Shown in pieces: positions 14,881 to 35,186 of a DNA stretch of 64,000 nt (its first letter is position 1; each line of letters opens with the position of its first letter). The notes below the pieces were generated by a model. It was given only the letters and a program-made list of their open reading frames with translations, was not told the DNA's origin and made no database searches. This stretch comes from an uncultured Gemmatimonadales bacterium (GTDB lineage: Bacteria; Gemmatimonadota; Gemmatimonadetes; Gemmatimonadales; GWC2-71-9). The translations under genes were made by a program, and so were the position numbers. The stretch spans positions 32,001-96,000 of the forward strand of contig CAVUAK010000001.1 in the NCBI GenBank assembly GCA_963739455.1. The letters are read 5' to 3'.

Positions 14881-15014
14881 GCTTCAATGCTGATACCTTC
14901 GAGCCACAAATGGAGTGAATAGCGGTATCATATCCACCGGATCGTGTGCCTGCCGGCACAGCTTCAGGTGGGTCAACCGGGCTTTACAGACGACGAAAGG
15001 CAGGGCAGGAAGAC

Positions 15015-15230
15015 ATGGCCACACTGCTGAGCAAGGCACTCAAGCGGGCAATCAACATCAACGGTGCGGACTACGTGCTGACGATTACGCCGGAAGGGTT
15101 GACGCTCACCCCGAAGGGGAAGCGGAAGGGACAGTCGTGGACGTGGGGCCAGCTGCTGAGCGGCGAGGCCGGACTGGCGTCGGCGCTGGCGGCATCGGTG
15201 CGGGATGAGGGGACCGAGGGAAGCGAGTAA
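15015..15230 (+). CDS. Small hypothetical protein (71 aa)
   Basis: AGGAAG RBS, ATG start, MATLLSKALKRAINING... with high-GC codon usage. Confidence 0.7.
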   Translation: MATLLSKALKRAININGADYVLTITPEGLTLTPKGKRKGQSWTWGQLLSGEAGLASALAASVRDEGTEGSE

Positions 15231-15231
15231 G

Positions 15232-15258
15232 TAGGGCGGGTAAGGCGGGTAAGGCGGG
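15232..15258 (+). repeat. 9-mer tandem repeat TAAGGCGGG x3
   Basis: tagggcggg taaggcggg taaggcggg. Confidence 0.75.
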
Positions 15259-15266
15259 TAGGCACA

Positions 15267-16226
15267 TTGGTTGGAGGCGCGGTCCCAGCGGCTGGGATCG
15301 CGCCTTTCCTTTTCCAAGGGGCTGGGTTGATCCTCTTCATCCTGAACAGCGGGTCGGGCACGGGGAACTGCGACGCTATCACCACGCAGATTACCGAGCG
15401 CTTCTCAGTGCTGGGAGAAGAAGTGCGGATCGTCCTTGCCTCCACCGGTGAGGAGATGGAGTGGGCCGCCAGGCAGGGGCTCGCGGCCGGGGCGACCGCC
15501 ATCGTGGCGGGCGGCGGGGACGGTACGATCAGCACGGTCGCGGGGGTACTCGCCGACAGTGACGTCCCGCTCGGCGTCCTCCCCCTCGGCACCCTGAATC
15601 ACTTCGCAAAGGACCTGGGTATTCCACTGGAGCCGGCCAAGGCGCTCGAGGTGATCGTGGCGGGACACACGATCGCGGTGGATGCGGGCGAGGTGAACGG
15701 CAAGCTCTTCCTCAACAATTCGAGTCTCGGGCTCTACGCGCGGATCGTGCGGCTGCGACAGCGATACCAGGCGCGCGGGATCGCCAAGTGGTTCGTGGCG
15801 GCGTGGGCGATGCTCAAGGTGATGGAAGAGAACCCGGTCTTCACGGTCCGGATCGGGGTCAACGGTGAGAGCGTCACCTATCGCTCGTCGCTGGTGATGG
15901 TGGGCAACAATGCATACCGGATGGAAGGGCTGGACGCGGGTTCACGCGATTCGCTGACCAGCGGCCAGCTCAGCGTGTACGTGGTGCAGAGTGAGGGAAA
16001 GCTGGGCCTCGCCCGACTGATCTGGCAGATCGTCGCGGGCCGTGCCGAGGAGGGTGAGGAGTTCGAGGTGCACCATGTGACGGCGGCGACCGTGGAGACG
16101 GCATCCAGCACGATGCCCGTGGCGCGGGATGGAGAAGTAGCGCAGCTGACGATGCCGCTGCAATTCCGGATACGGTCGAAAGCGTTGCTCGTGCTGGCGC
16201 ACGAGCGACGTGAGGATGTGAAGTAG
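15267..16226 (+). CDS. Diacylglycerol/lipid kinase family protein (start uncertain)
   Basis: NSGSG, AGGGDGT, LPLGTLNHFAKDLGIP, VGNN, DGE motifs. Confidence 0.85.
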   Translation: MVGGAVPAAGIAPFLFQGAGLILFILNSGSGTGNCDAITTQITERFSVLGEEVRIVLASTGEEMEWAARQGLAAGATAIVAGGGDGTISTVAGVLADSDVPLGVLPLGTLNHFAKDLGIPLEPAKALEVIVAGHTIAVDAGEVNGKLFLNNSSLGLYARIVRLRQRYQARGIAKWFVAAWAMLKVMEENPVFTVRIGVNGESVTYRSSLVMVGNNAYRMEGLDAGSRDSLTSGQLSVYVVQSEGKLGLARLIWQIVAGRAEEGEEFEVHHVTAATVETASSTMPVARDGEVAQLTMPLQFRIRSKALLVLAHERREDVK

Positions 16227-16276
16227 ACCCTGGCGACGCAACGGGATTGTTGAGGAAGCTACGCGGCCTCGCAATG

Positions 16277-16312
16277 ACAAAGGGCGTGAGGATTTCTCCT
16301 CACGCCCTTTGT
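16277..16312. terminator. Bidirectional intrinsic terminator
   Basis: ACAAAGGGCGTGAGGA / TCCTCACGCCCTTTGT perfect 16-bp stem between convergent genes. Confidence 0.8.
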
Positions 16313-16325
16313 GTACAGCGACTGG

Positions 16326-16766
16326 CTACTGCCGGGCGCCGAGAGGCGCCGCGGTGACCACGACAGTGAGCGTCGCAGTGTCGTCGCTGACACCGCTGCC
16401 CGATGCCGTGAGCGTAAGGGGGTAGGTGCCCGGCACTGCGTCAGCAGCGGCGGAGACGGTGATGGCAGCAGTGCTTTCGCCGACACCCAGAGCGGCTGGA
16501 GCGAAGACAGCATCGACACCCGCCGGCTCACCGGTGACTGCGAGCCCCACGCCGCCCGCGAAGGTGCCACTTCGATCGATGGCAATACTGGCTGCGGCGG
16601 AACCGCCCTGGACGATCGTAATGGAGGCCGGGGTGACGCCGATGTCGATATCTCCCGTGGAATCGTTGCCGTCACTACCGCACGCCGACAAAGTGAAGGC
16701 GCCTGCAGAGATTGCGATCGCGGCTGCCAGCATCATGCTGCGGCGCCGAGCAAATGGCTTGGACAT
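16326..16766 (-). CDS. Hypothetical lipoprotein with one beta-sandwich domain
   Basis: Lipobox LSAC; Thr/Val-rich beta strands (VPGTYPLTLTASG). Confidence 0.65.
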   Translation of the reverse strand: MSKPFARRRSMMLAAAIAISAGAFTLSACGSDGNDSTGDIDIGVTPASITIVQGGSAAASIAIDRSGTFAGGVGLAVTGEPAGVDAVFAPAALGVGESTAAITVSAAADAVPGTYPLTLTASGSGVSDDTATLTVVVTAAPLGARQ

Positions 16767-16895
16767 CCAGAAGACCTCGTTCGAGAGTTGAAACACGCGG
16801 GGAGAGCGATTCCGCAGGATGCGGGACCCGGCTCTCCCTGTGTTCGTGATACACCCGTGACGTTGAGATGTATCGCTCGCGCGCGACTGACACTT

Positions 16896-17309
16896 CTACG
16901 TGCGCGTGCGTCCGTAGAGCGGCAATGGTCCGCGCGGAGCGCGCCGCACGACCGGCTGCCGAATGGCAGACACGACCACCAGGCTGAAGCCGAGCAGCCA
17001 GGCCGCCAGGGCGACAAACACGGAGTGCACCTGCTGCGGAACGGCCCAGAGGACCCCTGCGACGGCGAGAACGAAGGTGCCCCAGAAGGCAAAGCCAAAG
17101 CCGCGCCGCTTACGAAGGAGCAACGAGAGGATCATCGCGGAGGCGGCGGCGGCGGACAGCAACGCGCGGACGGCGGTGAGCAGCACCGGGCTTGGCGTTG
17201 TCGCGAGCGCCTGGGTGAGCCCCAGCGCGAGTGCGATAGCGCACAGCATGATGGTGATGTACCGAACGACTGTCAGCATTCGCGACGCTCCCAAGTTCAC
17301 ACCCGACAT
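16896..17309 (-). CDS. Hypothetical membrane protein (about 4 TM; start uncertain)
   Basis: Four hydrophobic segments in ORF 16896..17453. Confidence 0.5.
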   Translation of the reverse strand: MSGVNLGASRMLTVVRYITIMLCAIALALGLTQALATTPSPVLLTAVRALLSAAAASAMILSLLLRKRRGFGFAFWGTFVLAVAGVLWAVPQQVHSVFVALAAWLLGFSLVVVSAIRQPVVRRAPRGPLPLYGRTRT

Positions 17310-17397
17310 TTCCTTGTACCCCGAGCCATCGGAGACGGTATCGGGTATTCGTGATCTGGAGGATCTGACACTGGCACAACGGCGTACTTCCCTGCAG

Positions 17398-18423
17398 ATG
17401 GTCACCGATGACGTGCCGGGCATTTCGCGGCACCGTCGGGGAAGTTCGTTCATCTACAAGCGGGCCTCCGGTTCGGCGGTACGGGACGCCGCCTCGCTGG
17501 CGCGCATCCGCAAGCTCGCGATTCCGCCGGCGTGGAAAGAGGTGTGGATCGCGCCCGACGATCGGGCGCACATCCAGGCGACCGGGCGGGATGTGCGGGG
17601 GCGGAAGCAATACCGCTATCACGGCACCTGGAGCGCCGAGCGAGGGAAGGCCAAGTACGGGCGGCTGGCGGAGTTCGCGCGGGAGCTCCCGGGGATGCGT
17701 GCGCAACTCCGGCGCGACCTCAAGCGCACTGATGCGTCGCGGGAGCAGGTGCTGGCGCTGCTGGTGACGCTGCTCGAGGCGACGTTCATCCGGGTGGGGA
17801 ACGAGGAATACAAGCGAGCCAACGGGTCGTATGGTCTGACGACCCTCCAGGACCGTCATGTGACGATCAGCGGGTCGCACATCCGGTTCGCCTTCCGTGG
17901 CAAGGGTGGGAAGGACCGGCTGATCGACCTCAAGGACCGGCGGCTGGCGCGACTGGTGAAGCAGTGCCGGGATATCCGCGGGGCGCACCTGTTCCAGTAC
18001 GTGAACGCGAAAGGTCACCGGCGTCCGGCGCACTCGAGCGACCTCAATGGCTATATCAGCGGCATCGCCGACGGGGAATTCACCGCGAAGGATTTCCGCA
18101 CCTGGGGCGCGACGCTGACCGCCGCGCGGCTGCTCGACCGACATCGCGAGATCGTGATCGGTGTTCCGGGGAAGGCGGCGATGCTGCGGGACATTGCGGC
18201 GGTCGCGGCGGAGCTGGGGAATACGCCAGCGATCTGCCGGAAGAGCTACATCCATCCCTACCTGCTCAAGGCGTACCAGGACGAACCGGCCTGGAAGGAT
18301 TGGCGGCGCACGGCCGCGGGGCGTGCCGTGGCGGGCCTGGCACCGGACGAGGCGCGACTGCTTCGCTTTCTCGCGCTCGCGAGCCGAAGGAAGTCAGCTG
18401 GCTTGCATGGTGGAGCAGGCTAG
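17398..18423 (+). CDS. DNA topoisomerase IB (poxvirus-like bacterial TopIB)
   Basis: IPPAWKEVWI, GRKQYRYH, IRVGNEEY, FRGKGGK, FTAKDFRTW, LGNTPAICRKSYIHP (catalytic Tyr). Confidence 0.92.
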   Translation: MVTDDVPGISRHRRGSSFIYKRASGSAVRDAASLARIRKLAIPPAWKEVWIAPDDRAHIQATGRDVRGRKQYRYHGTWSAERGKAKYGRLAEFARELPGMRAQLRRDLKRTDASREQVLALLVTLLEATFIRVGNEEYKRANGSYGLTTLQDRHVTISGSHIRFAFRGKGGKDRLIDLKDRRLARLVKQCRDIRGAHLFQYVNAKGHRRPAHSSDLNGYISGIADGEFTAKDFRTWGATLTAARLLDRHREIVIGVPGKAAMLRDIAAVAAELGNTPAICRKSYIHPYLLKAYQDEPAWKDWRRTAAGRAVAGLAPDEARLLRFLALASRRKSAGLHGGAG

Positions 18424-18690
18424 CGATCGAAGGAAGGCGAGGCCGCCCGGAACCCCGAGGGGAACCGGGCGGCGCTTTCGGGGAGGACCTATGAACGATC
18501 GCACAGCAAAGAGGGCGTACTCCCTGTGGTCGATACTACCGCGGAAACATTGCTGAGTTTCGGTAACGTGCGGTCACGCCCTGCCGCCCGGGGTAGAGAT
18601 GTCATGCCTGAGGACAGCTCATGCTTCGTCCCGCGATCGGCGCGTTCTTGAAGGGCCGGCACCTTTTTATCGGGTGGCGCGCGCCCCGGA

Positions 18691-19191
18691 CTAGCTGAAC
18701 TGCACCGTGCCGGTATCGCTGCTGGTATCGGGCTTGCCGGTGACGGCTGCCTTCGCCATCGAGAACAGTGATGCAATCTTGCCGCCCGGGGTGTCCCAGT
18801 ACTCGGCCTCGTCAACATCCACGCGAATGAGGCGGACACGGGGATCATCGGGACCGTCGAACCAGGCATCCATGAACTTGTTCCAGAACTCCTTGATGCG
18901 ACTGCGATCGTTGAGCACCTGCGCCTTGCCGGTGAGCGAGAGATAGCTCTCGGAGGCCGACGAGGCGTAGGTGACGGCAACCGTTGGGAAGGCGGCGATA
19001 TCGACGATCTTCTGCGAGTCGACGTCGGAGAGGAACCAGATGCTGCCGTCGAACTCGGCGTCCTGGGTGGCCATGGGACGGCTGTGCGGCTTTCCCTGAG
19101 GAGTCAGAGTGACCAGCATCGCGGTACGAATGTCCTTGATGAGCTCGGCGACCTTGCGGATGCCAGCGTTGGGATCGGTGTCGGTGTGCAT
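18691..19191 (-). CDS. General stress protein 26 / pyridoxamine 5'-phosphate oxidase-like FMN-binding protein
   Basis: AMLVT..HSRPMA..WF..., AWFDGPDDP, AEYWD. Confidence 0.85.
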   Translation of the reverse strand: MHTDTDPNAGIRKVAELIKDIRTAMLVTLTPQGKPHSRPMATQDAEFDGSIWFLSDVDSQKIVDIAAFPTVAVTYASSASESYLSLTGKAQVLNDRSRIKEFWNKFMDAWFDGPDDPRVRLIRVDVDEAEYWDTPGGKIASLFSMAKAAVTGKPDTSSDTGTVQFS

Positions 19192-19241
19192 GGGCGGAAC
19201 TCCCGGGCTGAAAGACTTGAAGGCTTGAGGTGGAGCGCGCC

Positions 19242-19817
19242 TCAGGCGTGACGATGGCCACGGCGCACTTCGGGGGGCAGCTTCGCGGCGGGGAGGTACT
19301 TGAGCTCCTCGCCAGTCCGGACGGCGCTGAGCAGCATGGCGCCGCGGCTCATGTCACCCAGGCCCACGAACGCCGCGGGATAGAAGAGCCGCTCACCGAG
19401 TATGTCGCAGAGAATGCCGAGATACTTGCGGGTGGCAATGCTGCCAAGGAAGACGATGCGGTCGCCCGTGAGGAGCCGCACGTCCCGCTCGAGCGCCTGG
19501 CGATAGCGACTGTCGTGGATGTCGATGGCGAGCTCGCTGAAGCTCCGGAGATCCTCGGCAGTGATGCGCGTGTCGATGGGCAGGAGCCCGCGGTCGGTGG
19601 TGATGACCTGGATGCCATCACCGGGGTGCCCGAAGCGCGCAGCGTAGGCAAGCTTGCCGCGGAAGTAGAGGCCGCTGAGGAAGCTGAAGACCTCGCCGAT
19701 CGGTGCGCCGCGGGGCCCGCGGATGCTGCTTGCGAGGGGAAAGTCCGCCTCATCGTTGAGCAGCACCCTTGCCCGCCTGCCGCCAGCGTGAGCCGGCGAC
19801 AGGAGGAAGGTGGTCAC
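19242..19817 (-). CDS. Conserved hypothetical protein, possibly YaaA/DUF6884-like
   Basis: FLLSPA, FLSGLYFRGKLAYA, VITTDRGLL, VFLGSIATRKY, GDMSRG; coding-like codon usage. Confidence 0.6.
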   Translation of the reverse strand: MTTFLLSPAHAGGRRARVLLNDEADFPLASSIRGPRGAPIGEVFSFLSGLYFRGKLAYAARFGHPGDGIQVITTDRGLLPIDTRITAEDLRSFSELAIDIHDSRYRQALERDVRLLTGDRIVFLGSIATRKYLGILCDILGERLFYPAAFVGLGDMSRGAMLLSAVRTGEELKYLPAAKLPPEVRRGHRHA

Positions 19818-19833
19818 TTCCGACGCACCGGGC

Positions 19834-20391
19834 TCAGAAGCGGATTCGAATACCAGCATTGATCGGGATGAAGCTGATATCATCGGGATCTGTGAAGACG
19901 CGGTGGAAGCGCGTTTCCGCAAAGAACCCGAACGGAGCATTGACGACGGCGAAGTCGACGCCGATGCCGGCGTTGAGGCCGAAGTTGCCGTCATAGAGGC
20001 CGAGCCCGCCGATGAGGTACGGGCGAAAGGCATTCGAGTCGGAGCCGAGTTCATACACGACCCCGATGGTGGCCTGGAACAGCGTGGAGTTCAGGTCCAC
20101 TGCCATCAGGTCGAGCTGCAGGTCGATGGGCCAGTTGTGCGGCGTGGCCCGGAGGCTGGCACCGATATCCCAGCCGGTGCTCAGGCCATCGGGGGACGTC
20201 GGAAACACAACGCCGATGGTGGGGCGGATCTCGAACTTGTACTCTCGCGCGGCCTGGGTGGCAGCGTTGGGCTTGTTCGCCTGTGCCGCGAGGAGGCCCG
20301 GTGTCGCGACGGTGGTAGCCAGTGTAACAAGGGAAACGGCGGTGACAGCGCGAATGAGCTGTGATCGCAGTTCGTATGTACGTCCGTGCAT
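19834..20391 (-). CDS. Outer-membrane beta-barrel protein (small OmpA/OmpW-like)
   Basis: Signal peptide; FRPYLIGGLG, FGLNAGIG strands; C-terminal GIRIRF. Confidence 0.8.
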   Translation of the reverse strand: MHGRTYELRSQLIRAVTAVSLVTLATTVATPGLLAAQANKPNAATQAAREYKFEIRPTIGVVFPTSPDGLSTGWDIGASLRATPHNWPIDLQLDLMAVDLNSTLFQATIGVVYELGSDSNAFRPYLIGGLGLYDGNFGLNAGIGVDFAVVNAPFGFFAETRFHRVFTDPDDISFIPINAGIRIRF

Positions 20392-20541
20392 TGAGTTCTC
20401 CCGAGCAAGTTGGGACATGCGCTTTGCATGCCTGTGCTGTATACCCATCAGTGTCCCAAAGCACTCGAAATGAATCCTGAAACCAACGGCGGCCATGTGT
20501 TGTAGTAATGGTTTCACAACGTAGACAGGACATTCATATCC

Positions 20542-20976
20542 ATGCATACTGATCGCATAGCAGAGGCCTCGGTCATCATCAACATGTCGCGCGAGGCGGT
20601 GTGGAACGCGCTGACAGACCCCCAGGCCATTTCGCAGTACATGTTCGGCACGACGGTGACGACGGACTGGCTCGAAGGGAGCGAGATCCGCTGGAAGGGC
20701 GAGTGGAAGGGCCGCGCCTACGAAGACAAGGGCACCATACTGGCCATCGTGCCATTCCGGCGGCTCGTGTATACGCACTACAGCCCACTTTCGGGGCAGC
20801 CGGACACGCTGGACAATTATCACACTGTAACAATTGCGCTGGTTCCCGATGGACAGCGCACCGAGGTGACACTGACACAGGACAACAATTCCTCTGACGA
20901 CGCGAAAGCGCATTCAGAGGAGAATTGGGCGGGGATGCTGATCGGTCTCAAGCGTTACGTCGAGGCGCGACGGTAA
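20542..20976 (+). CDS. SRPBCC/AHSA1 domain protein
   Basis: VWNALTDP..ISQYMFGT..TDW..G; C-terminal W..ML..LK..VE. Confidence 0.85.
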   Translation: MHTDRIAEASVIINMSREAVWNALTDPQAISQYMFGTTVTTDWLEGSEIRWKGEWKGRAYEDKGTILAIVPFRRLVYTHYSPLSGQPDTLDNYHTVTIALVPDGQRTEVTLTQDNNSSDDAKAHSEENWAGMLIGLKRYVEARR

Positions 20977-21102
20977 TTCCGCTCTAAAGCAACGGGATCC
21001 CCTCGCTTCGCTCGGGATGCTTCGCACATTGCGAGTCTTGCGAGTGCAGTTGTGAGTTGTTAGTCTGAGTGGCGGTAAAGAGCACGAAGAAAAAAAGCAG
21101 TA

Positions 21103-21170
21103 CCTTGACGACGGAGAGCATGTCTCCGAAGTGGAAGGCGCCAGCAGACACTGTCTGCGGCGCCTTTTTT
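21103..21170 (+). promoter_or_regulatory. Leader element A: hairpin plus intrinsic terminator 5' of yciF (attenuator/riboswitch candidate)
   Basis: CGGAGA/TCTCCG stem, then GGCGCC-A-GCAGAC / GTCTGC-GGCGCC-T6, ending about 30 nt before the ATG. Confidence 0.6.
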
Positions 21171-21199
21171 GTTCACACTACTCAAGCAGGAGTTGCATC

Positions 21200-21799
21200 A
21201 TGTCGCTCGACAACTTGAATGACCTGCTCACCGAGCAGCTGCAGGATATCTACTACGCAGAGAAGCAGCTGGTGAAGGCGCTCCCGAAGATGGCAAAGGC
21301 CGCCAACACCCCGGAGCTGGTGACGGCCTTCACCGATCACCTGGAGCAGACGAAGGAGCACGTGGCGCGGCTGGAGCGCGCGTTCGCGGCAATGGGCGTC
21401 ACCGCGAAGGCGAAGAAGTGTCCGGCGATCGAGGGCCTGATCGAGGAAGCGTCGGAGATGATCGAGGAAGAGGGTGAGCCGTCAGTGCTGGACGCCGGCC
21501 TCATCGCCAGCGCACAGCGGGTGGAGCACTACGAGATCGCCGCGTATGGCAACGCGCGCGCGTTCGCGGAGGCGCTGGGCAACAATGACGTCGTTGCCAT
21601 CCTGGACGAGACGCTGGGTGAGGAGCATGCGGCCGATGAGCTGCTCGGCACGATCGCGATGGACACGGTGATCCCCGCGGCGCTCGAGGCGGGCGGCGGC
21701 TCGGAGGAGATGCAGGACGAGGATGAGGACGAGGAGGAAGTGGCCTCGACGGCGAAGGCGTCATCCAGCAAGGGACGCCAGAACCCGGTCAAGAAGTAG
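21200..21799 (+). CDS. yciF: Ferritin-like stress protein YciE/YciF (DUF892)
   Basis: DIYYAEKQLVKALPKM, HLEQTKEH, AQRVEHYEIAAYG, TLGEE..AD. Confidence 0.9.
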   Translation: MSLDNLNDLLTEQLQDIYYAEKQLVKALPKMAKAANTPELVTAFTDHLEQTKEHVARLERAFAAMGVTAKAKKCPAIEGLIEEASEMIEEEGEPSVLDAGLIASAQRVEHYEIAAYGNARAFAEALGNNDVVAILDETLGEEHAADELLGTIAMDTVIPAALEAGGGSEEMQDEDEDEEEVASTAKASSSKGRQNPVKK

Positions 21800-21842
21800 C
21801 GAGCGAAGCGAAGTCTCGTCGAATCGAATGGTGCGGTCGTGC

Positions 21843-22292
21843 TCACGTGGGCAGGGCCGCGCCATTTTTCGTGTTGTCCCCGGAGTCGTCGGGGAGGATC
21901 CGGCTGCGAGTGAGTTCGTCGAACTCGTCGAGTCCCATCCAGCCGAAGTAGCGGCGATTGTTCGCGAAGGTGCGGTACATCCAGTCGCCGATGGCGCGGG
22001 GCACGAGCCGTCCGAGGGTGCCGACGACTCCCCAGAGCCCGCCGACAAAGTGCATGACGCCGAGCACCGCTGCGTAGCGCTGCACCGGGAGACCGTTGCG
22101 GGGCATCCAGATGGCGCTGTCGCGCGCGCTGAAGGCGGGATCCTCGCGCCTCACGGCGTCGCCATGTGCTCCCTGAAGCGGTGCGATGCGGAGCTGCCCG
22201 GAGGAATCGGCGTGAACGAACCACTGGACGAAGCGACGGCAGACGCTACAGCGCGCGTCGTACAGAAGCAGGGGATTCTCATTGTCTGGCAT
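21843..22292 (-). CDS. DCC1-like thiol-disulfide oxidoreductase (DUF393)
   Basis: LLYDARCSVC (DxxCxxC), D.MY..FA.NR. Confidence 0.85.
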   Translation of the reverse strand: MPDNENPLLLYDARCSVCRRFVQWFVHADSSGQLRIAPLQGAHGDAVRREDPAFSARDSAIWMPRNGLPVQRYAAVLGVMHFVGGLWGVVGTLGRLVPRAIGDWMYRTFANNRRYFGWMGLDEFDELTRSRILPDDSGDNTKNGAALPT

Positions 22293-22339
22293 TCGAGCAA
22301 CGTACCACGGAAGGTGGCTGCCGGGTCATTTCGTGGTGT

Positions 22340-22783
22340 TCAAGCAGCAGCGCAGTCGGGACCCTTCACCGTCCGGTCGCGGAAGAGCACGGAACCGGGA
22401 TCGGCGGGGACGGCGATGATGTCGATGGGCATGGTCTTCGCCGCGCCCGGCTTGCACGAGCGGTAAGTGATGACGGTGAAGACGCCCTTCACACCCTTGG
22501 GATCGGGCTGGATGACGACGGAGTCGCCCGCAGTGGCGGGGTTGGCGGCGACGATCACCATTTTCCTGGTGAAGTTGATATTGGGGGCCTTCCGCACCTT
22601 GCCGCTGGCGTCGGGGCGACCGGCGGATGTTGCCCAGGCGCTCCGGAAGGTGGCGGTGTCCCGGATGACTTCCTGGTATGGTGCGATGAAGTCAGAGTCG
22701 GCGCCGCGATAGACCTTCTGCGCCTTGGGCGCAGGCGCAACCGTGATGAGGGCGAGTACGGCAGGAACGGTGAATGCGCGCAT
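22340..22783 (-). CDS. Hypothetical secreted protein
   Basis: GAGG RBS, signal peptide MRAFTVPAVLAL; follows the BNR gene in operon. Confidence 0.6.
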   Translation of the reverse strand: MRAFTVPAVLALITVAPAPKAQKVYRGADSDFIAPYQEVIRDTATFRSAWATSAGRPDASGKVRKAPNINFTRKMVIVAANPATAGDSVVIQPDPKGVKGVFTVITYRSCKPGAAKTMPIDIIAVPADPGSVLFRDRTVKGPDCAAA

Positions 22784-22790
22784 GTTGTCC

Positions 22791-23846
22791 TCAAAATCCG
22801 CTGATCTTGGTGATCTTGCCACGTGTGCCAACGGCCCAGCCTGCACGGGGTGAGGCGAACCCCACACTCCAGTAGTTGAGCGTGTCGATGGCGACCCAGG
22901 TGGCGCCATCATCGGCGGACCAGGCGGCGCCACCGGGGCCCACCACGACGGCGGTGGGCTTCTTCGTGCCCGGGACGTAGACGCCGCCCCACGCACCAGT
23001 CTTCATGGGAAGCTTGCCGCGGAGCGCCCAGGTGAGGCCACTGTCGGCGGTGAGAGCAACGTTCTCGTCTCCCAGTTTCCCCGTGGTGCCACCACCGAAC
23101 GCCATGCCATGCTTGCCGTCGCGAAAGGCAATGGATGCTGCACCGGCACCGGCGCGCGTGGTGAGGGGCAATGTTACGGAGCCCCAGGTGCGGCCGTAAT
23201 CACCCGAAAGTAGTACGCGGGAACGGATGCTGTCGGCAGCGACGATCCAGACGCGGCCCGGCGGGCCCGTCACCAGGCAGGTGCCGCTCGCGGCGTAGCT
23301 GCCCTCACCGTCGGGTGCGGTGGGCGTGGTGGCCGCCGGCGTAGGGTTCCAGTGCAGCCCGCCATCGTCGGTGGTGAGGATGCCGGTGTGACCCTTCGAC
23401 GCGTCGCCGACGGCGATGCCGCGCTGAGCGTCCCAGAAATCGAAGCAATCGTAGAAGGCGTCGGGGTCCTGGTTGGTGAACTGGAGGGTCCAGTTGGTGC
23501 CACCGTCGGCGGTGTAGTAGATGCGCGAGCTGGCGCCGTTGCCGATGCTGAGGAGCCAGGCGTGGTTGGCATCGAGGGCGTGCACATCGCGGAACTGGAG
23601 CGAATCGGCGCCGGGCACCTTCCCGGCCTGCCAGGTGGCACCGCCATCGATGGTGCGAAGCCAGGTGCCGCCGCTGCCACTGACCCAGGCAACCGAATCG
23701 GTGACGGCGCTCACGGCAATGAGCAGCGCCGAGGTGTTGCTTACCTGAGTTGTGCGCGAGACGTTGACGGGCGCCGCGGCGGGGCTGCCGCCGCCGGAAC
23801 AGGCTGCCAGGACGATCAGGGCGAAGGCAGGAATACGACGCATCAA
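22791..23846 (-). CDS. Ycf48/BNR (Asp-box) repeat beta-propeller lipoprotein
   Basis: Lipobox LAAC; repeated TxDGGxxW Asp boxes. Confidence 0.85.
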   Translation of the reverse strand: MMRRIPAFALIVLAACSGGGSPAAAPVNVSRTTQVSNTSALLIAVSAVTDSVAWVSGSGGTWLRTIDGGATWQAGKVPGADSLQFRDVHALDANHAWLLSIGNGASSRIYYTADGGTNWTLQFTNQDPDAFYDCFDFWDAQRGIAVGDASKGHTGILTTDDGGLHWNPTPAATTPTAPDGEGSYAASGTCLVTGPPGRVWIVAADSIRSRVLLSGDYGRTWGSVTLPLTTRAGAGAASIAFRDGKHGMAFGGGTTGKLGDENVALTADSGLTWALRGKLPMKTGAWGGVYVPGTKKPTAVVVGPGGAAWSADDGATWVAIDTLNYWSVGFASPRAGWAVGTRGKITKISGF

Positions 23847-23942
23847 TGGCTCCGTCAGCGGGTAGCAGGAGAAGAGCCCAGAGCGGGCTCGAACAACGTA
23901 TCAGTGTTACAGAAGAGAATCCGCCCAACCAGGGGCGAGATT

Positions 23943-24013
23943 GCCTTACGATCGGAGCGATGTCGGCTTCGAACGGGCGGGCGCGGCAGCAGACGCTGCG
24001 TGCGCCCTTTTTT
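23943..24013 (+). promoter_or_regulatory. Leader element B: hairpin plus intrinsic terminator 5' of the HhH protein gene (homologous to element A)
   Basis: TCGGAGC/GCTTCGA stem, then GGGCGCG-GCAGC / GCTGC-G-TGCGCCC-T6, about 40 nt before the ATG. Confidence 0.6.
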
Positions 24014-24052
24014 GTGTTACTGACCACGACACCCAGGAAAGAGAGCAATCAT

Positions 24053-24484
24053 ATGCGAAACAAGCTGATCGCCGTACTCGGGGCACTCATGCTGAGCGCC
24101 GGAGCAATGCAGGCCCAGACGGGTGCTGCCACGAAGGCACCGATGGACATCAACACTGCGTCACGCACCGAGCTCGCCTCGGCCGGCTGGGGCCAGTATG
24201 CCGATGCCATCATCGCGGGCCGGCCGTACAAGAACATGAATGACCTGGTGGAGAAGAAGGTCGTTCCGCAGAAGGCGTATGATAAGGGGTACGGCAACTT
24301 CACGATCGGGGATGGCAACTCACCGCTGTCCGACGGTAACAGCGCCCAGCCGATGACGCCGCCGGCCGCAACGCCGCCGACCGTCACGCCGGGCACTGCT
24401 CCGACCGTCACGCCGGGCACTGCCCCGACCGTAACGCCGGGTGCAGCCCCGACCACGACCGCACCTGCAGCTCCAGCCAAGTAA
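24053..24484 (+). CDS. Secreted ComEA-like helix-hairpin-helix protein with Pro/Thr-rich repeat tail
   Basis: Signal peptide; DINTAS..EL..., AIIAGRPY..DLVEKKVVP..YD; PTVTPGTA repeats. Confidence 0.75.
   Translation: MRNKLIAVLGALMLSAGAMQAQTGAATKAPMDINTASRTELASAGWGQYADAIIAGRPYKNMNDLVEKKVVPQKAYDKGYGNFTIGDGNSPLSDGNSAQPMTPPAATPPTVTPGTAPTVTPGTAPTVTPGAAPTTTAPAAPAK
24377..24455 (+). repeat. 24-bp in-frame tandem repeat (PTVTPG(T/A)A) x3
   Basis: ccgaccgtcacgccgggcactgcy repeated. Confidence 0.85.
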
Positions 24485-24567
24485 CCTGTCCGTCGGGGGC
24501 GCGCGCGAGTTCGTTCGCGCGCGTCCCCGTCGTGACGTCCCCAGTCAACGAAGCAAGAGGATAGACG

Positions 24568-25179
24568 ATGAGCCGCTCCACAACCGAAGCAATCAACAGC
24601 TACCTGACCGATATGCTGGCGCTCGAGGAGCACATCCTCGTGGCGGTCACGGCACAGGTGAAGGACTTCAAGGATGGGCCGCAGGTGCTGGTCATGGCGC
24701 TCGAGGCGATCCAGGTCACGGTCGAGCATCATGTGGTCTCGCTGAAGGAGATCATCCAGGAGCGCGATGCGGGTGCGGCGAACTCGATCGCGGAGGCAGT
24801 GAAGCGCGCGGCGTCGGTCCTGGCGGGTGCAGGAGCTGCTGCAGTCGACCTGGTGCGGAACGAGAAGTTGCCCAAGGACCTGCGGGACGACTACACCGCC
24901 TTCAGCCTGGCAACAGTGAGCTACGTGATGCTGCTGACCACAGCCATGTCACTGAACGACCAGCCTGTGGCGGAAGTGGCGGAGCGTCACTTGAAGCACT
25001 ACACGAAGGTGGTCATGAAGCTGAACAACATCCTGCCGTCGGCGGTGATCGCGGAACTGCGGGAAGAGGGGTTGCCGGCGCGGGAAGAACAGTTGCCCGC
25101 GATCGCGCGGACGCTCAAGGGCGTGTGGAGTGATCCGTACAACGAGGTGCCGGAGGTGGATGAGGTGAGCGTGGGCTAG
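24568..25179 (+). CDS. Ferritin-like domain hypothetical protein
   Basis: YLTDMLALEEHI, HH, LRDDYTAFSLA..SY.ML four-helix pattern; GAGG RBS. Confidence 0.7.
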   Translation: MSRSTTEAINSYLTDMLALEEHILVAVTAQVKDFKDGPQVLVMALEAIQVTVEHHVVSLKEIIQERDAGAANSIAEAVKRAASVLAGAGAAAVDLVRNEKLPKDLRDDYTAFSLATVSYVMLLTTAMSLNDQPVAEVAERHLKHYTKVVMKLNNILPSAVIAELREEGLPAREEQLPAIARTLKGVWSDPYNEVPEVDEVSVG

Positions 25180-25189
25180 GAACTGCAAC

Positions 25190-25232
25190 TGAGTGAGGGG
25201 TGAGGGGAAAGTCTCCCTTCACCCCTCACTCA
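25190..25232. terminator. Hairpin built from inverted GGGTGAG heptamer units between convergent genes
   Basis: TGAGTGAGGGGTGAGGGGA / TCCCTTCACCCCTCACTCA (19 bp, one G-U). Confidence 0.65.
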
Positions 25233-25236
25233 TTGC

Positions 25237-25575
25237 TCAGGCGTCGCGGAGGGCCCGGGCGGCGAGGTAGCCCACGGCGAGTGCCGCCAGGAGGGACTTG
25301 GCGGGATGGCGGCGGACGATGGACTCGACATCGGCGAGCATGTCGCGGCCATCGTTGTGACGAACGTAGCGGGAGGCCGACTCGACCCTGTCGGCCACCT
25401 TGTGGGTGACCGCGCTGACGCGCTCGGCGCTGGTGGTGATATCGTCGGCGCGGCGGTGCAAGGTGCGCGCGGCGCCCTTCAGGCTGTCCGCGGCGACGGT
25501 ACGGCCGTCGTCGAGCGTTGCTTCTACGGCGTCGCCGATGTCATTGCCCAGGTGCCGGCCAGTATCGTGCTTCAT
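25237..25575 (-). CDS. ElaB/YqjD-like C-tail-anchored stress protein
   Basis: Helical N-terminus; C-terminal VRRHPAKSLLAALAVGYLAARAL; GGAGG RBS. Confidence 0.7.
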   Translation of the reverse strand: MKHDTGRHLGNDIGDAVEATLDDGRTVAADSLKGAARTLHRRADDITTSAERVSAVTHKVADRVESASRYVRHNDGRDMLADVESIVRRHPAKSLLAALAVGYLAARALRDA

Positions 25576-25599
25576 AAGTCCTCCGCTAGTGGAAAATGC

Positions 25600-25845
25600 C
25601 TACCTCGTACTACCGAGCGGGGACAGTTTTGTGTCGGTGATCAGGCGCTCGGTGAAATCGAGCCGCGCCTCGAGCTCACTGACCCGCGATTCGAGCGCGT
25701 CAATGTAGGACTGGTGCCGCTCGACCTCCTCGAAGCGGGACCGATACTCGCTGACCTGTTCCCGGCGCTGCCAGCGCCGGCGCCGCATCATCATGAACAG
25801 CATGATCAACGGCACCCAGAACATCCACCCCATCGCCCAGAACAT
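25600..25845 (-). CDS. Small membrane protein with coiled-coil tail
   Basis: N-terminal TM, ELEARLDFTERL tail; AAGGAGA RBS. Confidence 0.7.
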   Translation of the reverse strand: MFWAMGWMFWVPLIMLFMMMRRRRWQRREQVSEYRSRFEEVERHQSYIDALESRVSELEARLDFTERLITDTKLSPLGSTR

Positions 25846-27198: not shown

Positions 27199-28410
27199 CT
27201 AGGGAGAGATGGCCTGCGCTTCCACTATCTCCGCTCCCGGGAGTGTGTGCCAACTCGACCAGGTCTCCTTGGCAATCACGTAGCGCAGCGCGGCGCGGCC
27301 ACTCACCGTCAGCGTGTCGACCTGCGGCCTTGTAGCCGGGCTTGGCGCGCGCCTTGAACTTGGCCCCCGTCGCGTTGAGGAACCAATCGCGATAGCGGGG
27401 CTCATCCCACACGGAAATCCAGACGAGCGCGGGGCCGCCGTTGGCTTCATCGAGACGGAAGCGATCGCCGCCCCAGCCGAGCGGGAGTGCCGCGTTGCTG
27501 GCCTTCCTGCCGGTGAGTTCCTGCATGAGCAGGCGGATATCAAACTCGCCGAGCACGTCCTCATAGCTGCCGGGGACAGTGTCGGTGAACTGGATGTCGA
27601 TGGGCTGGTCGCCACGCTGCGTAGCGCTCGGGGTGAATGATCTGCTCGGTGGAGCGCGGCATGCGCGGACCATAGGGGAGCGTATCGGCGAAGGGCGACT
27701 TGCCCCACCAGAGCATGAACTCGGCGCCGGCGAGATAGGGAAAGAGCAGTCCCTCGCGCAGCACGGCCGGGGTCTTCTCCATGCCGCCGCCGGAGAGCAT
27801 CTGGTCTCCCGTCTTCCGGAACTCGTCCCAGAAGTCCTGGCTCTGCGCCACCTCGGCGCCCTGGAGCATGACGATGGAGGCGTAGTTGGCCTGTCCCTCG
27901 AGGATGGCCTGCGCTGCGGCACTGCGATCGTTGCTGCTCTTGTCCTTCAGGATGGAGTCGAGCGGCATGTACTGGTCCTGCAGCGCGTGCACCAGCTCGT
28001 GCGCGACGGTGAGGCGGAGCACCGGCCCGTCGGCGCCCTCGACGCCGTAGAGCGTGGCGGAGTCGGGATCGTAGTAGCCGGCGATCTGCTGGGAGAGCAT
28101 GTCCTCCATGACGGCGCGGAGGTCGAGCGAATCGGGGAGGAGTCCGAGAAGGGTGTAGGCGCGGGTCAGCTGGAGGAAGCGCTCGGGGGGCATTTCCTGG
28201 GACGAGCTTGGCGCGGACGAAATTTCGCACCTCATCGCGGGTGCGGAGGACGGCCGCGGGGCGGCGCTTGAACTTGATGCCGACGCTCTGCTCGACGGCG
28301 GGCATGAGGCTGTCGACGAGATGTGCGAGATTGCGATCGGCGTCGGTCTCCCGAGGCTCGCCGCGACAGGCGACCGTCGCGACGAGCAGGAGGCAGAGCG
28401 ATGCCCGCAT
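27199..28410 (-). CDS. Lipoprotein with HExxH zinc-metalloprotease motif (frameshifts near 28195 and 27615)
   Basis: Lipobox TVAC; IAGYYDP, AHELVHALQDQY, LEGQA, FPY..G..F, GWGGD segments spread over three frames. Confidence 0.7.
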   Translation of the reverse strand: MRASLCLLLVATVACRGEPRETDADRNLAHLVDSLMPAVEQSVGIKFKRRPAAVLRTRDEVRNFVRAKLVPGNAPRALPPADPRLHPSRTPPRFARPPRRHGGHALPADRRLLRSRLRHALRRRGRRRAGAPPHRRARAGARAAGPVHAARLHPEGQEQQRSQCRSAGHPRGTGQLRLHRHAPGRRGGAEPGLLGRVPEDGRPDALRRRHGEDPGRAARGTALSLSRRRRVHALVGQVALRRYAPLWSAHAALHRADHSPRALRSVATSPSTSSSPTLSPAAMRTCSASLISACSCRNSPAGRPATRHSRSAGAAIASVSMKPTAAPRSSGFPCGMSPAIAIGSSTRRGPSSRRAPSPATRPQVDTLTVSGRAALRYVIAKETWSSWHTLPGAEIVEAQAISP

Positions 28411-29209
28411 CACGCGTTCAGGTAGGTGACGGCGTACCACTGCACGATCTTCGGGCCGAAGAGGTAGGCGACACCGGCCCCGATGGCGAGGTAGACGCCG
28501 AAGGGCACCGAGCTTCTTCCGTCCCATGAGTGCGAGCGGGAGGAAGATGATGGTGCCGATGAGCGCGCCGAGGAAAATCGTGAGCAGCACACCGGTCCAG
28601 CCGACGAAGACGCCGACCATCGCCATCATCTTGATGTCGCCACCGCCCATCGCATCCTGCTTGAGGATGATGGAGCCGAGCCAGCCGACGGCCCAGAGGA
28701 CGCCGAAGCCGAGTGCGCCGCCCATGAGGGAGAAGGTGAGGCCGTGCAGGCCGCCGCCGATGCCGGTGATGATCAGGCCGAGCACGAGCGCCGCCGATGG
28801 TGAACTCATCGGGGATGATGTATGGCGCGGGCATCGGTGACCAGGATGCCGAGCAGCAGGGTGAAGAAGACGCGCGGCACGGACGGCGGCGAGGGTGGGA
28901 CCGAAGAGCCAGACGAAGTAGACCCAGATGAGGGCGGTGAGCGAGCTCGACCAGCGGGTACATGAGCGAGATGCGCTCCCTGCAGTGGCGGCACTTGCCG
29001 AGCAGGATGAGCCAGGAGATGACGGGGATGTTGTCATACCAGGCGATCTGGTTGCCACACTTGGGGCAGCGCGAGCGCGGACGGAGCACCGACTCCGGGG
29101 GTTCCTTGCCCCAGGAGAGGATGCACACGTTGAGGAAACTGCCGATGAGGAGGCCGAAGACGGCGGCCACGATGTAGAAGAAGTTGGAGCCCAGTCCTTC
29201 AGTCGGCAC
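28410..29209 (-). CDS. pilD: Prepilin peptidase/N-methyltransferase, A24 family (several frameshifts)
   Basis: [57 protein letters not shown]. Confidence 0.85.
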
Positions 29210-29968
29210 GCAAGACCTCGTAGAGAAGAATCCCGGCAGCCACAGCCACGTTGAGCGACTCGGCGCCAGGTGCAAGGGGAATGCCCACGCGACGGGAGGC
29301 GTGGGCGGTCATCGATTCACCAACACCAGCGCCCTCGTTGCCGACGACGAGGAGCATCGCGGTGGTACGGGGCGCGCGGGGGACGGGGTCGCCGTCAGCG
29401 GCGGTGACCCAGATGGCGGCCCGTGAGTCGCGGCCCAGGCGGCGAGCAGTCTCCACGTCGGTCGCGACACAGGGGAGACGGAACGACGCTCCCATGCCGC
29501 CACGCATCGCCTTCGGGTTGCAGGAGATCGGCGGTGCCGGGCAGGGCGACGACCCCGGCGGCGCCAAGGGCCAGCGCGGTGCGCAACATGGTACCCACGT
29601 TGCCGGGATCCTGCACGGCGTCGAGGACGAGGACGGCACTGCGCGGGGCGCAGGGCGATATCGTCGAGGGACCAGTCGCGGGGCTCGATGACGGCGACGA
29701 CGCCCTGCGGGTGCTCGGTGTCGGCGAGCTCGGCGAGGGCGCGATCGTCCAGCTTCTCGAGCTTGATGCCGGCCGCGATAAGTGCGCCTTTCAGCGTCTC
29801 GCCGCGACGGGTAGCTTCGAGCGCGGGTGAAATGACGGCGCCCTTGATGGGAATGCCGGCGGCCATCGCCTCCTCGACGAGGCGGACGCCCTCGGCGAGT
29901 GCGAGGGCGCGGCGCTCACGGCCGCGGCGTCGCTGCAGGTCACGAATCAACGTTTCGAGTGCACTCAT
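29199..29968 (-). CDS. TrmH/SpoU family RNA 2'-O-methyltransferase (frameshifted)
   Basis: [52 protein letters not shown]. Confidence 0.88.
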
Positions 29969-31858: not shown

Positions 31859-32649
31859 GTTCGATAATGCCAGTGAAGAGCGAGATCATGTCGCGTTGGA
31901 CACTGCGGGCCGTCTCCATCACTTCGGCGTGCGAGAGGGCTTCGTGGCCGATGCCGCTCGCGAGGTTGGTGACGGTGGAGATGCCCATGCATTTCATGCC
32001 CAGCGCGCGCGCGGCGAGGACCTCGCTCGACGGTGGACATGCCGACCGCGTCGGCACCGAGCTTCTCGAGCATGCGGACTTCGGCCGGGGTCTCGTAGCT
32101 GGGACCGAGGAGACCGGCATAGACGCCTTCCTCGAGCTGAATACCGCGATCGCGGGCGACGTCACGCGCGAGGGCGCGGAGGGCGGGATCCCAGGGGTCG
32201 GACATGTCGGGAAAGCGCGTCTCACCGCTGCGCACGGCGCCGATCAACGGGCTCTGGAACTGAAGATTGATGTGATCGGCGATGAGCATGAGGGTGCCGG
32301 GCTTGAACGTCCTCCGGATGCCACCCGCTGCGTTCGTCAACATCACAGTCCGGATACCTACCGCGGCGGCGGTGCGGACGGCGAGTGCACTGGTATCGGC
32401 GTCGTGTCCCTCGTACATGTGGAAGCGGCCTGCCTGGGCGAGGACATCGCGACCGGCAAGCTGGCCGAGGACGAGTTCGCCCTTGTGGCCCTCGACGGTG
32501 GGGATGGGGAAGCCGGGGATGTCGCGATAGGCGAGGCGCGTGGGCGCGGAGAGATGCTCGGCGAGATCGCCGAGGCCCGAGCCGAGGACGATGAGCGCCG
32601 CAGGCTTCCGGCCCGCGAGGAATGCGGAGATGGCAGCGGCAGCGGTCAC
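31800..32649 (-). CDS. punA: Purine nucleoside phosphorylase (trimeric type; frameshift near 32025)
   Basis: VLGSGLG, VEGHKG, GRFHMYEG, TNAAGG, GPSYETPAE, VGMST, LSHAEV. Confidence 0.9.
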
Positions 32650-33950
32650 AGCAGCATCCCCGCCAAGCTCGCGGACATGAAGCCGGCGAGGTTGCCGACG
32701 ATCATGGCGCGCAGGCCGAAACGGGCGACGTCGGAGCGGCGCTCAGGCGCCAAGCCACCGACGACGCCGACCTGGATACCGATGGTGGCGATGTTGGCGA
32801 ATCCAAGCAGCGCGTATGTGGCGATGATCCTGCTGCGGGGATCGAGGACCATCCCCGCGGCGAGGTCCGCGGCGAACTGCTTGTACGCGACGAGATCAAC
32901 GAGGGAGACCTTGAGCGCAATGAGTCCGCCGACGTAGGCGGTGTCAGCCCAGGGCACACCCATGATGAAGACCAGCGGTCGAAGCAACTGTCCGCCGATG
33001 ACCTGCAAGCTGGCTTCGGGATGCCCCATGAGCCCACCGAGCCAGCCGAGTCCGGCGTTGAGCAGCGCCACGAGACCCACCAGGGCGATCACGATGGCCA
33101 CGATGTTGATGGCCACCTGCATGCCCTTGAGCGCCCCATTGGAGATTGCATCGAGGACACCAGAATCGGTCCTCTCGACCGCAACGTCGAGCGAGTCGGC
33201 CGTGACGGGCACTCCCGTCTCCGGCAGGAGAATCTTGCTGAGCAGAAGAGCGCCCGCTGCGTTCAGGACGCTGGCTGCCACGAGACTTCCGCCAACGCCG
33301 CCGATCTGGGGCTGCAGGAACGCCACGTACACCGCCATCACGGCGCTGGACGCCGTGGCGAAGCTCACCACCATGAGGCACACGAGTTCGGACTGCGTGA
33401 GGCGGGCGATGAAGGGCTTGATGAGCAGCGGCACCTGTGCCGCCCCCAGGAAAATGTTGGCGGCCGCGGCAAGGGTCTCGGCGCCGGAGGTCCGGATGGT
33501 TTTCTGGAGGACCCAGGCAATGCCCTTCACGATCGGGTTCATGACGCCGAGATAGTAGAGCAGCGACATCAATGCGGAAAAGAAGATGATGGTCGGCACC
33601 ACACCAAAGGCGAACGTCGCCCCGGTGCGAACGACGAAGCCTGCGCTGACGTCGAAGGCGCCGGCGGGACCAGGGACGCCGACCGCAACATCGGGCTGGA
33701 CCAGGTTACCGAAGACGAAGCGCGCGCCCTGTTCCTGGAACCGCAGCAACGCGTTGAACGCCATCCCGATGCGGCTGAACAGCGCCTGACCCGCACCGGT
33801 CTTCAGCATGAGCACCGCGAGTCCGCCCTGGAGCGCCAGGCCCAGCGCGACGCGGCGCCACTTGATGCTCCTCCTGTCATACGACAGCAGCACGGTCAGC
33901 AGCACCATCGTGGCGACGCCGAGCAAGCCGATGAGGCGGGACGCGTTCAT
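32646..33950 (-). CDS. nupC: Concentrative nucleoside transporter (CNT/NupC family), copy 2
   Basis: PTIIFFSALM.LLYYLG, TSGAE..AAANIFLG, YALLGFANI..IGIQ.G. Confidence 0.88.
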   Translation of the reverse strand: MNASRLIGLLGVATMVLLTVLLSYDRRSIKWRRVALGLALQGGLAVLMLKTGAGQALFSRIGMAFNALLRFQEQGARFVFGNLVQPDVAVGVPGPAGAFDVSAGFVVRTGATFAFGVVPTIIFFSALMSLLYYLGVMNPIVKGIAWVLQKTIRTSGAETLAAAANIFLGAAQVPLLIKPFIARLTQSELVCLMVVSFATASSAVMAVYVAFLQPQIGGVGGSLVAASVLNAAGALLLSKILLPETGVPVTADSLDVAVERTDSGVLDAISNGALKGMQVAINIVAIVIALVGLVALLNAGLGWLGGLMGHPEASLQVIGGQLLRPLVFIMGVPWADTAYVGGLIALKVSLVDLVAYKQFAADLAAGMVLDPRSRIIATYALLGFANIATIGIQVGVVGGLAPERRSDVARFGLRAMIVGNLAGFMSASLAGMLL

Positions 33951-35186
33951 CAGAGCAGCATCCCCGCAATGGTGGCGGACAGGAAGTTCGCGAGCGTGCC
34001 GGCGAGCATGGCGCGGAAGCCGAGCCGGGCGAGGTCATCCTTGCGCTCGGGGACGAGGGCACCGATGCCGCCGATCTGGATGCCGACCGACGCGAAGTTG
34101 GCGAAGCCGGCGAGCGCGAACGACGCGATGGTGAAGGAGCGCGGGTCGAGCGTGTCCTTGAGCTGCCCGAGCTGGGCAAAGGCGATGAACTCATTCAGCA
34201 CCGCGCGGGTGCCGAGCAGGCCGCCGATGACGCCGCTGTCAGCCCAGCTGACGCCCATCACCCAGGCGACGGGACGGCCGATCCAGGAGAGCACGGTCTG
34301 GAGGTTCTCGGGCATCCAGGGGAGCCAGTCATGGAAGAGCCCGAAGATGCCGTTCACCAGTGCCACGAGCGCCACGAAGGCCACGAGCATGGCGATGACG
34401 TTGAGCATGAGGTGCAGGCCCTCGCTGGTACCGCGCGCGGCGGCGGCCACGAGGTTCACGTCGGCCTTCGGGATGTCGAGATCGACGTTGCCGAAGGTCT
34501 CGGGGTGGCCGTCCTCGGGCTCGAAGATCTTGGCCATCATGATGGTGCCGGGCGCGGTCATGATCACGGCAGTGAGAAGATGCTTCGCGTCCACGCCAAA
34601 GGCTATGTACGCCACCATGATCGAGCCGGAGATGTGGGCCATGCCGGCGGTCATCACCGTCATGAGCTCGGAGCGGGTCATCTTCGGCGAGGAAGGGCCG
34701 GATGGTGAGCGGCGCCTCGGTCTGTCCCATGAAGATGGACGCGGCGACATCGAGACTCTCGGCGCCGGACGTCCGCATGAGCTTCGCCATGACGATGGCG
34801 AACACGCGCACGATGACCTGCATGATGCCGAGGTAGTACATGATCGCGAAGAGGGCGGAGACGAAGATGATCGCCGGGAGGATCTGGAAGGCGAACACGA
34901 CGCCGATGCTGCTGTGCTGCTTGCCGAGCTCGCCGAAGACGAACTCGCTGCCCTGATAGCTGTAGTTGAGGACGGTGGTGACCAGGTCACCGAGCTTGCG
35001 GAAGAGAACCTGTCCGGCGGGGACGCGCAGGACGAAGATGGCGAAGATGAACTGGAGGGCGAACCCCCAGGCAACGACGACCCAGGGGATCTGGCGGCGA
35101 TTGCGGGAGAAGAGCACGGCGACCGCGATGAAGACGACGAGGCCGAGGATGCCGCGGAAGCGATCGATGAGGGGAAGGCCGTCCAC
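33950..35186 (-). CDS. nupC: Concentrative nucleoside transporter (CNT/NupC family), copy 1 (frameshift near 34685)
   Basis: TSGAES..IFMGQTEAPL.IRPF, MT.GMAHISGS, LNEFIAF, GFANFAS.GIQIGG. Confidence 0.88.

Follow-up and report, generated by a model that had tools for sequence, protein, structure and literature searches.

Our analysis supports a cis-regulatory RNA family whose members can take either an antiterminator or a terminator fold, each excluding the other, and which in Gemmatimonadales precedes general-stress genes. Two of its members, copy A (21103..21170) and copy B (23944..24013), lie in the stretch studied here, 64,000 nucleotides (nt) of contig CAVUAK010000001.1 from an uncultured Gemmatimonadales bacterium (hereafter the window), and across genomes the family is tightly paired with a response regulator that ends in an unannotated tail domain. 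Both elements had been picked out earlier from the letters alone (the original prediction), and both sequences were found in place and in sense orientation: the U-tract of A ends at 21170, 29 nt before the yciF start at 21200, and that of B at 24013, 39 nt before a gene for an exported helix-hairpin-helix (HhH) protein starting at 24053, close to the 30-40 nt that had been proposed. The gene 5' of B (22791-23843) is on the opposite strand, leaving B with no same-strand gene upstream, as had been noticed, and the same-strand AHSA1 gene (20542-20976) ends 126 nt before A. Since A and B are members of one multi-copy family whose stems covary, their likeness goes beyond chance, and the homology claimed for them stands. 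From the layout that they were said to share, the conserved hairpin base was retained; the ATGTC loop letters and the CAGCAGAC stretch are not family features, since the apical loop and the upper stem of the terminator vary freely across the family.

The conserved base of the hairpin consists of CCUUG-N-CG on its 5' side and A-GUCG-AAGG on its 3' side. From the base upwards, CCUU pairs with AAGG (in copy A, 21103-21106 with 21135-21138), followed by a bulged G, three pairs of which the middle one is loose (unpaired in 38/127 copies), a G.A juxtaposition (107/127), then about seven pairs that covary freely and form a stem, and a variable loop. The AAGG strand is also the 5' start of the terminator, whose 3' end is CCUU followed by a U-tract, with at least five U within 8 nt in 106 of the 127 copies. 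In the 127-copy alignment, 90.0% of cells in the antiterminator fold are paired, with a covariation of 0.529 versus 0.206 after shuffling and at most 0.090 after sliding, and 97.8% in the terminator fold, with a covariation of 0.278. The model that made this alignment did not include the five basal antiterminator pairs, although it did include the upper stem; in a held-out alignment 86.5% of cells were paired. Furthermore, a three-way change from U-A-U to C-G-C that keeps both pairings occurs in five copies at one position and in 3+1 copies at the next. The mutually exclusive folds that had been proposed on the strength of CCTT and AAGG are thus supported, in that both folds covary and AAGG is common to both.

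The terminator is the more stable of the two folds in 120/122 copies, by a median of 6.0 kcal/mol (6.3 for A, 9.1 for B), and termination is therefore predicted to be the default state. Fold z-scores are -5.2 for A and -3.0 for B, the 5' hairpins alone being unexceptional (-1.5 and -0.5). A promoter-like pattern, TTG-N16-18-TAnnnT, was found within 110 nt 5' of 60/125 copies, where base shuffles lead one to expect 3.1; its background is 23 in 5000 random windows and 1 in 54 generic terminators of this genome. The predicted promoter of A has the same spacing in three A orthologs (L002, L060, L061) and was missed by a stricter consensus tool for promoters and terminators, as were the bulged terminators of A and B. 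The promoter pattern, along with the more stable terminator fold, places the copies, as a prediction, in 5' leaders that terminate by default. A same-strand open reading frame (ORF) starts no more than 330 nt 3' of 139/144 copies, as judged with a crude caller and without an opposite-strand control. Four RNA-seq runs of G188, available as contigs with low and patchy cover, were unable to show transcript ends.

Table 1. Features of the window and of related loci in the same genome (G000).
Feature	Position	Strand	Remarks
Possible half copy before YegS-like lipid kinase gene (lacks 5' strand; 3' strand and terminator present)	15261..15314	+	R2 16.9 bits
Copy A, predicted sigma70-like promoter	21038..21066	+	-35 TTGCGA 21038-21043, 17-nt spacer, -10 TAGTCT 21061-21066; pattern scan
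Copy A, 5' hairpin (predicted antiterminator and putative protein-binding site)	21103..21138	+	fold; covariation over 127 copies
Copy A, predicted intrinsic terminator	21135..21170	+	AAGG common to 5' hairpin; then U6; covariation
yciF-like gene, ferritin-fold stress protein (DUF892); predicted target of A	21200..21799	+	Pfam E 2e-52
Copy B, 5' hairpin	23944..23981	+	divergent; compensatory changes in basal stem; folds, alignment columns
Copy B, predicted intrinsic terminator with U6	23979..24013	+	fold
Gene for exported HhH protein, Pro/Thr-rich tail; predicted target of B	24053..24484	+	HHH_3 E 2.5e-5, weak, below curated cut-off
Second YciF-like gene	24568..25179	+	DUF892 E 5e-5
Copy C	C1:1724769-1724854	minus	before second HhH exported protein
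Copy D	C1:1728858-1728946		before csbD
Copy E	C3:118395-118480		before DUF5670 protein and ECF sigma factor
Response regulator gene	G000:C1:1728028-1728745 (L025:529-1246)		frame shift about 45 codons in

A nucleotide model built from A and B alone (nhmmer) brought up a third copy only at E 3.5. Covariance models, which the original prediction had called for (R1 from 12 copies, R2 from 127), together with a descriptor scan, identified five copies in this genome, A to E, and further ones in several phyla. A pattern scan of GTDB matched at least 124 stretches, and among the matches listed those scoring with R1 come from Gemmatimonadota, Planctomycetota (Scalindua, Pirellulaceae, Phycisphaerae, Planctomycetia), Acidobacteriota (Holophagaceae, Solibacteraceae), Verrucomicrobia/Verrucomicrobiota, Chloroflexota, Zixibacteria and one gammaproteobacterial bin, a list that samples the range of the family. 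Many proteobacterial and actinobacterial pattern matches were rejected, as they lie inside coding sequence and receive no covariance-model score. Genomes carry 1-18 copies, these numbers being lower bounds. The yciF orthologs keep the element upstream; orthologs of B are present in G004, G006 and G009, and a paralog of its HhH gene (G000:C1:1724365-1724733) likewise has a copy upstream. With 41 bits against 59 for A, both being in the training set, B is a divergent member. Rfam 15 gave no match in the window at the gathering threshold and weak chance matches only at E ≤ 10, nor did any family reach gathering level over the elements of 20 further loci, which agrees with the earlier remark that this is not a named riboswitch class. 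A full-text literature search among openly available papers returned no description of the RNA or of the tail domain. Complete elements also occur as tandem pairs in one leader, and as divergent pairs, near csbD and kinase genes (L070, L078, L083, L091, L092, L047, L160), and in a Scalinduaceae record (L109:1609-2133) a transposase-like helix-turn-helix gene lies directly 3' of the element.

Between copies C and D lie a gene for a 970-amino-acid PAS histidine kinase (G000:C1:1725095-1728007) and one for a response regulator, composed of a receiver (REC) domain, a long helix and a basic C-terminal tail domain of about 90 amino acids. This regulator gene ends 4-262 nt 5' of the motif match in 44/45 locus rows across phyla, some rows repeating the same gene, and the kinase adjoins it in G000, G006, G074 and G188. 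The tail domain matches no Pfam or NCBIfam model, and REC was the only significant family when seven regulators were run against Pfam at E ≤ 1. At 50% identity it forms at least 1,302 clusters. In 131 aligned sequences, C53, C58, P59, T78, K79, F82, K83, S84 and R91 are 91-100% conserved, within a motif CxxxxCPR ... LExTKxxFKSKxLxxLR whose K/R residues are kept and whose invariant surface is basic; some distant members lack the cysteines. The phosphoacceptor Asp is present in 47 of the 50 sequences that could be parsed, out of 92 of full length. An AlphaFold model (predicted template-modelling score, pTM, 0.49) shows REC and a 40-residue helix (109-149), followed by another helix, a Cys loop of low confidence and, at the end, a helical hairpin; a dimer prediction scored 0.25. 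A fold search with the tail domain gave no standout match, the best (Z 7.1) being generic helical hairpins, with no ANTAR chain among the matches listed, and a PDB match to a Pumilio-domain protein (E 0.0026) was not taken as homology, since no single stretch was significant. Fusions of the domain to PAS, MEDS or hemerythrin inputs occur as well (P0061, P0094, P0096, P0121, P0136), one-component versions that could reveal its signals; a weak test for fused forms longer than 435 amino acids found none, and viral contigs held no relative. The cultured species Gemmatimonas phototrophica encodes the regulator as well (WP_026848919.1). G006 has a second kinase-regulator pair within its stress island (L293:9107-9898), and in G148 only a degenerate stand-alone tail domain was seen, beside csbD (L292:1263-1475).

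RNA and regulator are found in the same genomes. Counting RNA at E ≤ 1e-6, a cut-off placed at a gap in the scores, genomes with both, regulator only, RNA only and neither numbered 21/1/1/128 among 151 of the family, 46/1/2/38 among 87 of the genus of G180, and 11/2/3/105 among 121 of the class of G176. In G048, the regulator-only case of the family sample, a deeper search gave a copy 95 nt downstream (E 1.3e-5), and in G248 the regulator gene is cut by a contig end. G074, G139 and G148 were outside the training set, and their RNA matches were gained after the protein had pointed there. Copies on another contig or more than 20 kb away still fall in regulator-positive genomes (69/71 and 17/23), so linkage does not explain all of the pairing; in the third sample 1/36 copies is within 1 kb of the regulator gene, although contig breaks in drafts blur such distances. 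When non-Gemmatimonadota genomes were chosen by the RNA, 4/5 had the tail domain. Conversely, among metagenome loci retrieved solely through a distant protein, the RNA was present in 21/29 domain-bearing cases versus 0/9 with REC only; 18 of these matches reach at least 46 bits, several of them from close kin, all are on the strand of the gene, and five of the eight misses have less than 230 nt downstream. The yciF gene itself is present in 18 regulator-negative family genomes, and 18 of its upstream regions from 17 such genomes hold no copy, as is also the case for two from regulator-positive genomes (G139, G074).

Several points weigh against this picture and have to be taken into account. 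The cut-off of 1e-6 was chosen after the gap in scores had been seen, and genomes with weaker RNA matches (13, 4 and 5 in the three samples) were dropped. Related genomes do not count as independent cases, many of the copies sit in linkage with the regulator gene, and in seven genomes with the RNA (G174, G226, G243, G363, G367, G373, G178) no regulator was found. Co-occurrence shows a shared system rather than direct contact, and none of the known RNA-binding folds is similar to the tail domain. On the RNA side, the three-way covariation rests on few copies and its second position (position 8) is broken in 12/127, B departs from the family consensus and has no promoter pattern, and one RNA contig of G188 crosses the terminator. 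Lastly, the only regulator gene copy of this genome is frameshifted about 45 codons in. This is likely an assembly error, because several other genes of the window also look split into overlapping frames (27200-29300, 32646-34408 and 44278-45352; by eye prepilin-peptidase-like, nucleoside-transporter-like and PstS-like), which fits assembly indels. If the frameshift is real, the five copies would be orphaned in this genome.

So what would the regulator do at the element? We think it probable that, once phosphorylated by its kinase, it binds the nascent hairpin, keeps AAGG paired with CCUU and blocks the terminator, turning stress and signalling genes on. By analogy with EutV and BglG, the adjacent PAS histidine kinase would phosphorylate the regulator and activation would pass through the long helix, upon which the basic terminal helical hairpin (T-K-x-x-F-K-S-K ... 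L-R) may, again by analogy, contact the bulged base of the RNA hairpin directly. The bound regulator would hold the 5' hairpin shut, with AAGG remaining on the 5' CCUU, the terminator would fail to close, and transcription would reach the stress genes. Observed among these parts are the two covarying folds, the common AAGG strand, the sense position upstream of genes and the close pairing of RNA and regulator across genomes, default termination and the upstream promoter being computed predictions.

This arrangement is reminiscent of two known systems. ANTAR regulators such as EutW/EutV of Enterococcus faecalis, AmiR and NasR are, in the passages of PMC3369931 that describe them, likewise a kinase with a regulator of REC, long helix and output domain, with multi-copy leaders overlapping an intrinsic terminator and an output domain joined to varied sensors. 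The regulator here has the ANTAR architecture of REC, coiled coil and output, with the Asp and a cognate kinase, and EutV (6ww6) aligns to its model over 146 residues (TM 0.55). However, it has no PF03861 match, and where ANTAR RNA is described as two hexaloop hairpins with A1/G4 (PMC3369931, same passages), the present RNA has a single bulged hairpin whose loop varies. As a partner ANTAR was rejected: PF03861 occurs in 4/151 genomes, none of them RNA-positive (no positive among 14 control genomes). The ribonucleic antiterminator (RAT) of BglG, SacY and LicT, as outlined in PMC12591593, is a single stem-loop of about 30-40 nt that partly overlaps the terminator. Here, too, the stem-loop overlaps the 5' arm of the terminator, and in L170 and L317-L319 copies flank the regulator gene on both sides. 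The same placement is known for bglG. In contrast, the regulator is controlled by a receiver domain rather than by PTS/PRD (phosphotransferase system) and lacks a CAT domain (PF03123 in 0/5 RNA-positive genomes; control positive in 4/14), the targets are stress and signalling genes, and the RNA gives no Rfam match. As such, the system is ANTAR-like at the protein level and RAT-like at the RNA level, and lacks defining features of each. The motif named YjbJ (WRC-39-1) also consists of two hairpins with a terminator before a CsbD-like gene, yet in the main text of PMC11109978 it is reported from Streptococcus only, with 40 representatives, and it is by this description only that we set it apart.

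The genes downstream depend on the lineage. From the ORFs following 139 copies, 83 were run against Pfam; in Gemmatimonadales they include DUF892, CsbD, DUF1328, DUF5670, Ku and HhH proteins, besides LuxR-type and sigma54 regulators, PAS and HAMP kinases, cox1 and peptidase M48. This set we take to be a general stress regulon, judging by the SigB, RpoS and EcfG regulons. In other phyla we found REC proteins, methyl-accepting chemotaxis proteins (MCPs), CheW, hemerythrin, HD-GYP, HDOD, kinases and porins. Because signalling and chemotaxis genes dominate outside Gemmatimonadota, the label of stress genes is lineage-specific: the original prediction of a cis-regulatory family for general-stress genes is supported as to the family, its exclusive folds, its sense position and its Gemmatimonadales targets, while the link to stress is specific to that lineage.

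Could the same observations arise without a regulator that touches the RNA? It might instead act through RNA polymerase, an elongation factor or another reader of the hairpin, or favour termination and so constitute an OFF switch. By genomics, direct and indirect action cannot be told apart, the tail domain lacks any RNA-binding relative, and a stabilised hairpin in L317 and L318 would hide the ribosome-binding site, which is OFF logic. We nevertheless regard this as unlikely: the terminator already being the stable fold in nearly all copies, the switch needs an activator, the invariant surface of the tail domain is basic, and besides the kinase no second protein recurs beside the element, although this was not a genome-wide screen. 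Slightly less likely still, the hairpin would be the aptamer of a riboswitch that senses an ion or a signalling molecule, with the kinase-regulator pair merely in the same signalling module. REC, MCP, CheW, HD-GYP, HDOD and stress proteins do make up a target set that resembles second-messenger regulons, tandem copies occur in L070, L078, L083 and L091, and the few conserved unpaired bases (G.A and bulged G) could make a pocket. Yet the element folds as one bulged hairpin whose loop is free, the short helical unit that makes up the tail domain does not look like an enzyme, and yciF leaders lack the RNA in regulator-negative genomes. Moreover, the regulator stays beside the element across phyla while the downstream genes change, and since its gene usually lies upstream of the element, it is not the element's target. 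Thus, from the ligand or protein control that had been suggested, protein control is favoured, with the likely protein named, and a ligand less so.

Very improbable, in our view, is a passive element, be it a plain terminator, a small RNA or a dispersed repeat, whose 5' hairpin would do no more than stabilise a short transcript. Copy A does follow a same-strand gene, many copies follow the regulator gene, and a unit running from promoter to terminator would yield a stable RNA of about 100 nt, possibly a decoy. This is opposed by the lack of such a gene before B, the same-strand ORFs that follow most copies, the conservation of the competing pairing with compensation, the uniform strand of the protein-first matches and the low copy numbers.

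Returning to antitermination by direct binding, some loci suggest that the hairpin is separable from the terminator. In L317:1853-1889 and L318:2325-2361 the hairpin has no terminator, and its 3' strand enters the purine-rich ribosome-binding site a few bases before the ATG, a candidate translational OFF version. Conversely, in L339:2386-2542 and L340:1468-1597 the apical loop holds structured insertions of 50-75 nt, in which a second input could be nested. Lacking a terminator in the one case and tolerating long loop insertions in the other, the hairpin behaves as a movable binding module, and the sequences fit a binding site that is recognised at its base and serves two expression platforms. 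Hairpin-only matches were also seen at G232:C245:3824 and G383:C14:864415.

Taken more broadly, we put at somewhat better than even the chance that this is an undescribed multi-phylum system of a new RNA-binding output domain and its cognate hairpin, an antiterminator ON switch and in places a translational OFF switch, through which the Gemmatimonadales stress regulon (YciF, CsbD, DUF1328, DUF5670, Ku, ECF sigma) would be run by antitermination from housekeeping-type promoters instead of by a stress sigma factor. A 2025 review of antiterminators names ANTAR as the RNA-binding output of two-component regulators (PMC12591593). If our reading is true, there would be a second, unrelated one, with its RNA target and regulon; an unannotated domain family would gain a function, the control of general-stress genes in an abundant, poorly studied phylum would be explained, and a compact protein-RNA switch of about 38 nt and 90 amino acids would become available.

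In G006 the second YciF-like gene is preceded by a copy of its own (L062), and none was detected for it in this genome. The possible half copy has an E-value of 0.245 genome-wide (R2), the G009 ortholog has no copy, and it may be an ordinary terminator; the YegS-like kinase gene starts near 15327, and a short GGGCGGGTAA-type repeat stands where the 5' strand would be. A further match at 29699-29798 (E 1.7e-4 locally) is without the family core and was dropped as a copy. Positions 15000-25600 form a stress-gene island, encoding the YegS-like kinase, topoisomerase IB, a pyridoxamine-oxidase-like general stress protein, AHSA1, the two YciF-like proteins, a DCC1-like protein and a small unassigned protein (25237-25575). 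Between AHSA1 and the promoter of A, at about 20995-21020, there is a short palindromic stretch, presumably a repeat of the repetitive extragenic palindromic (REP) type.

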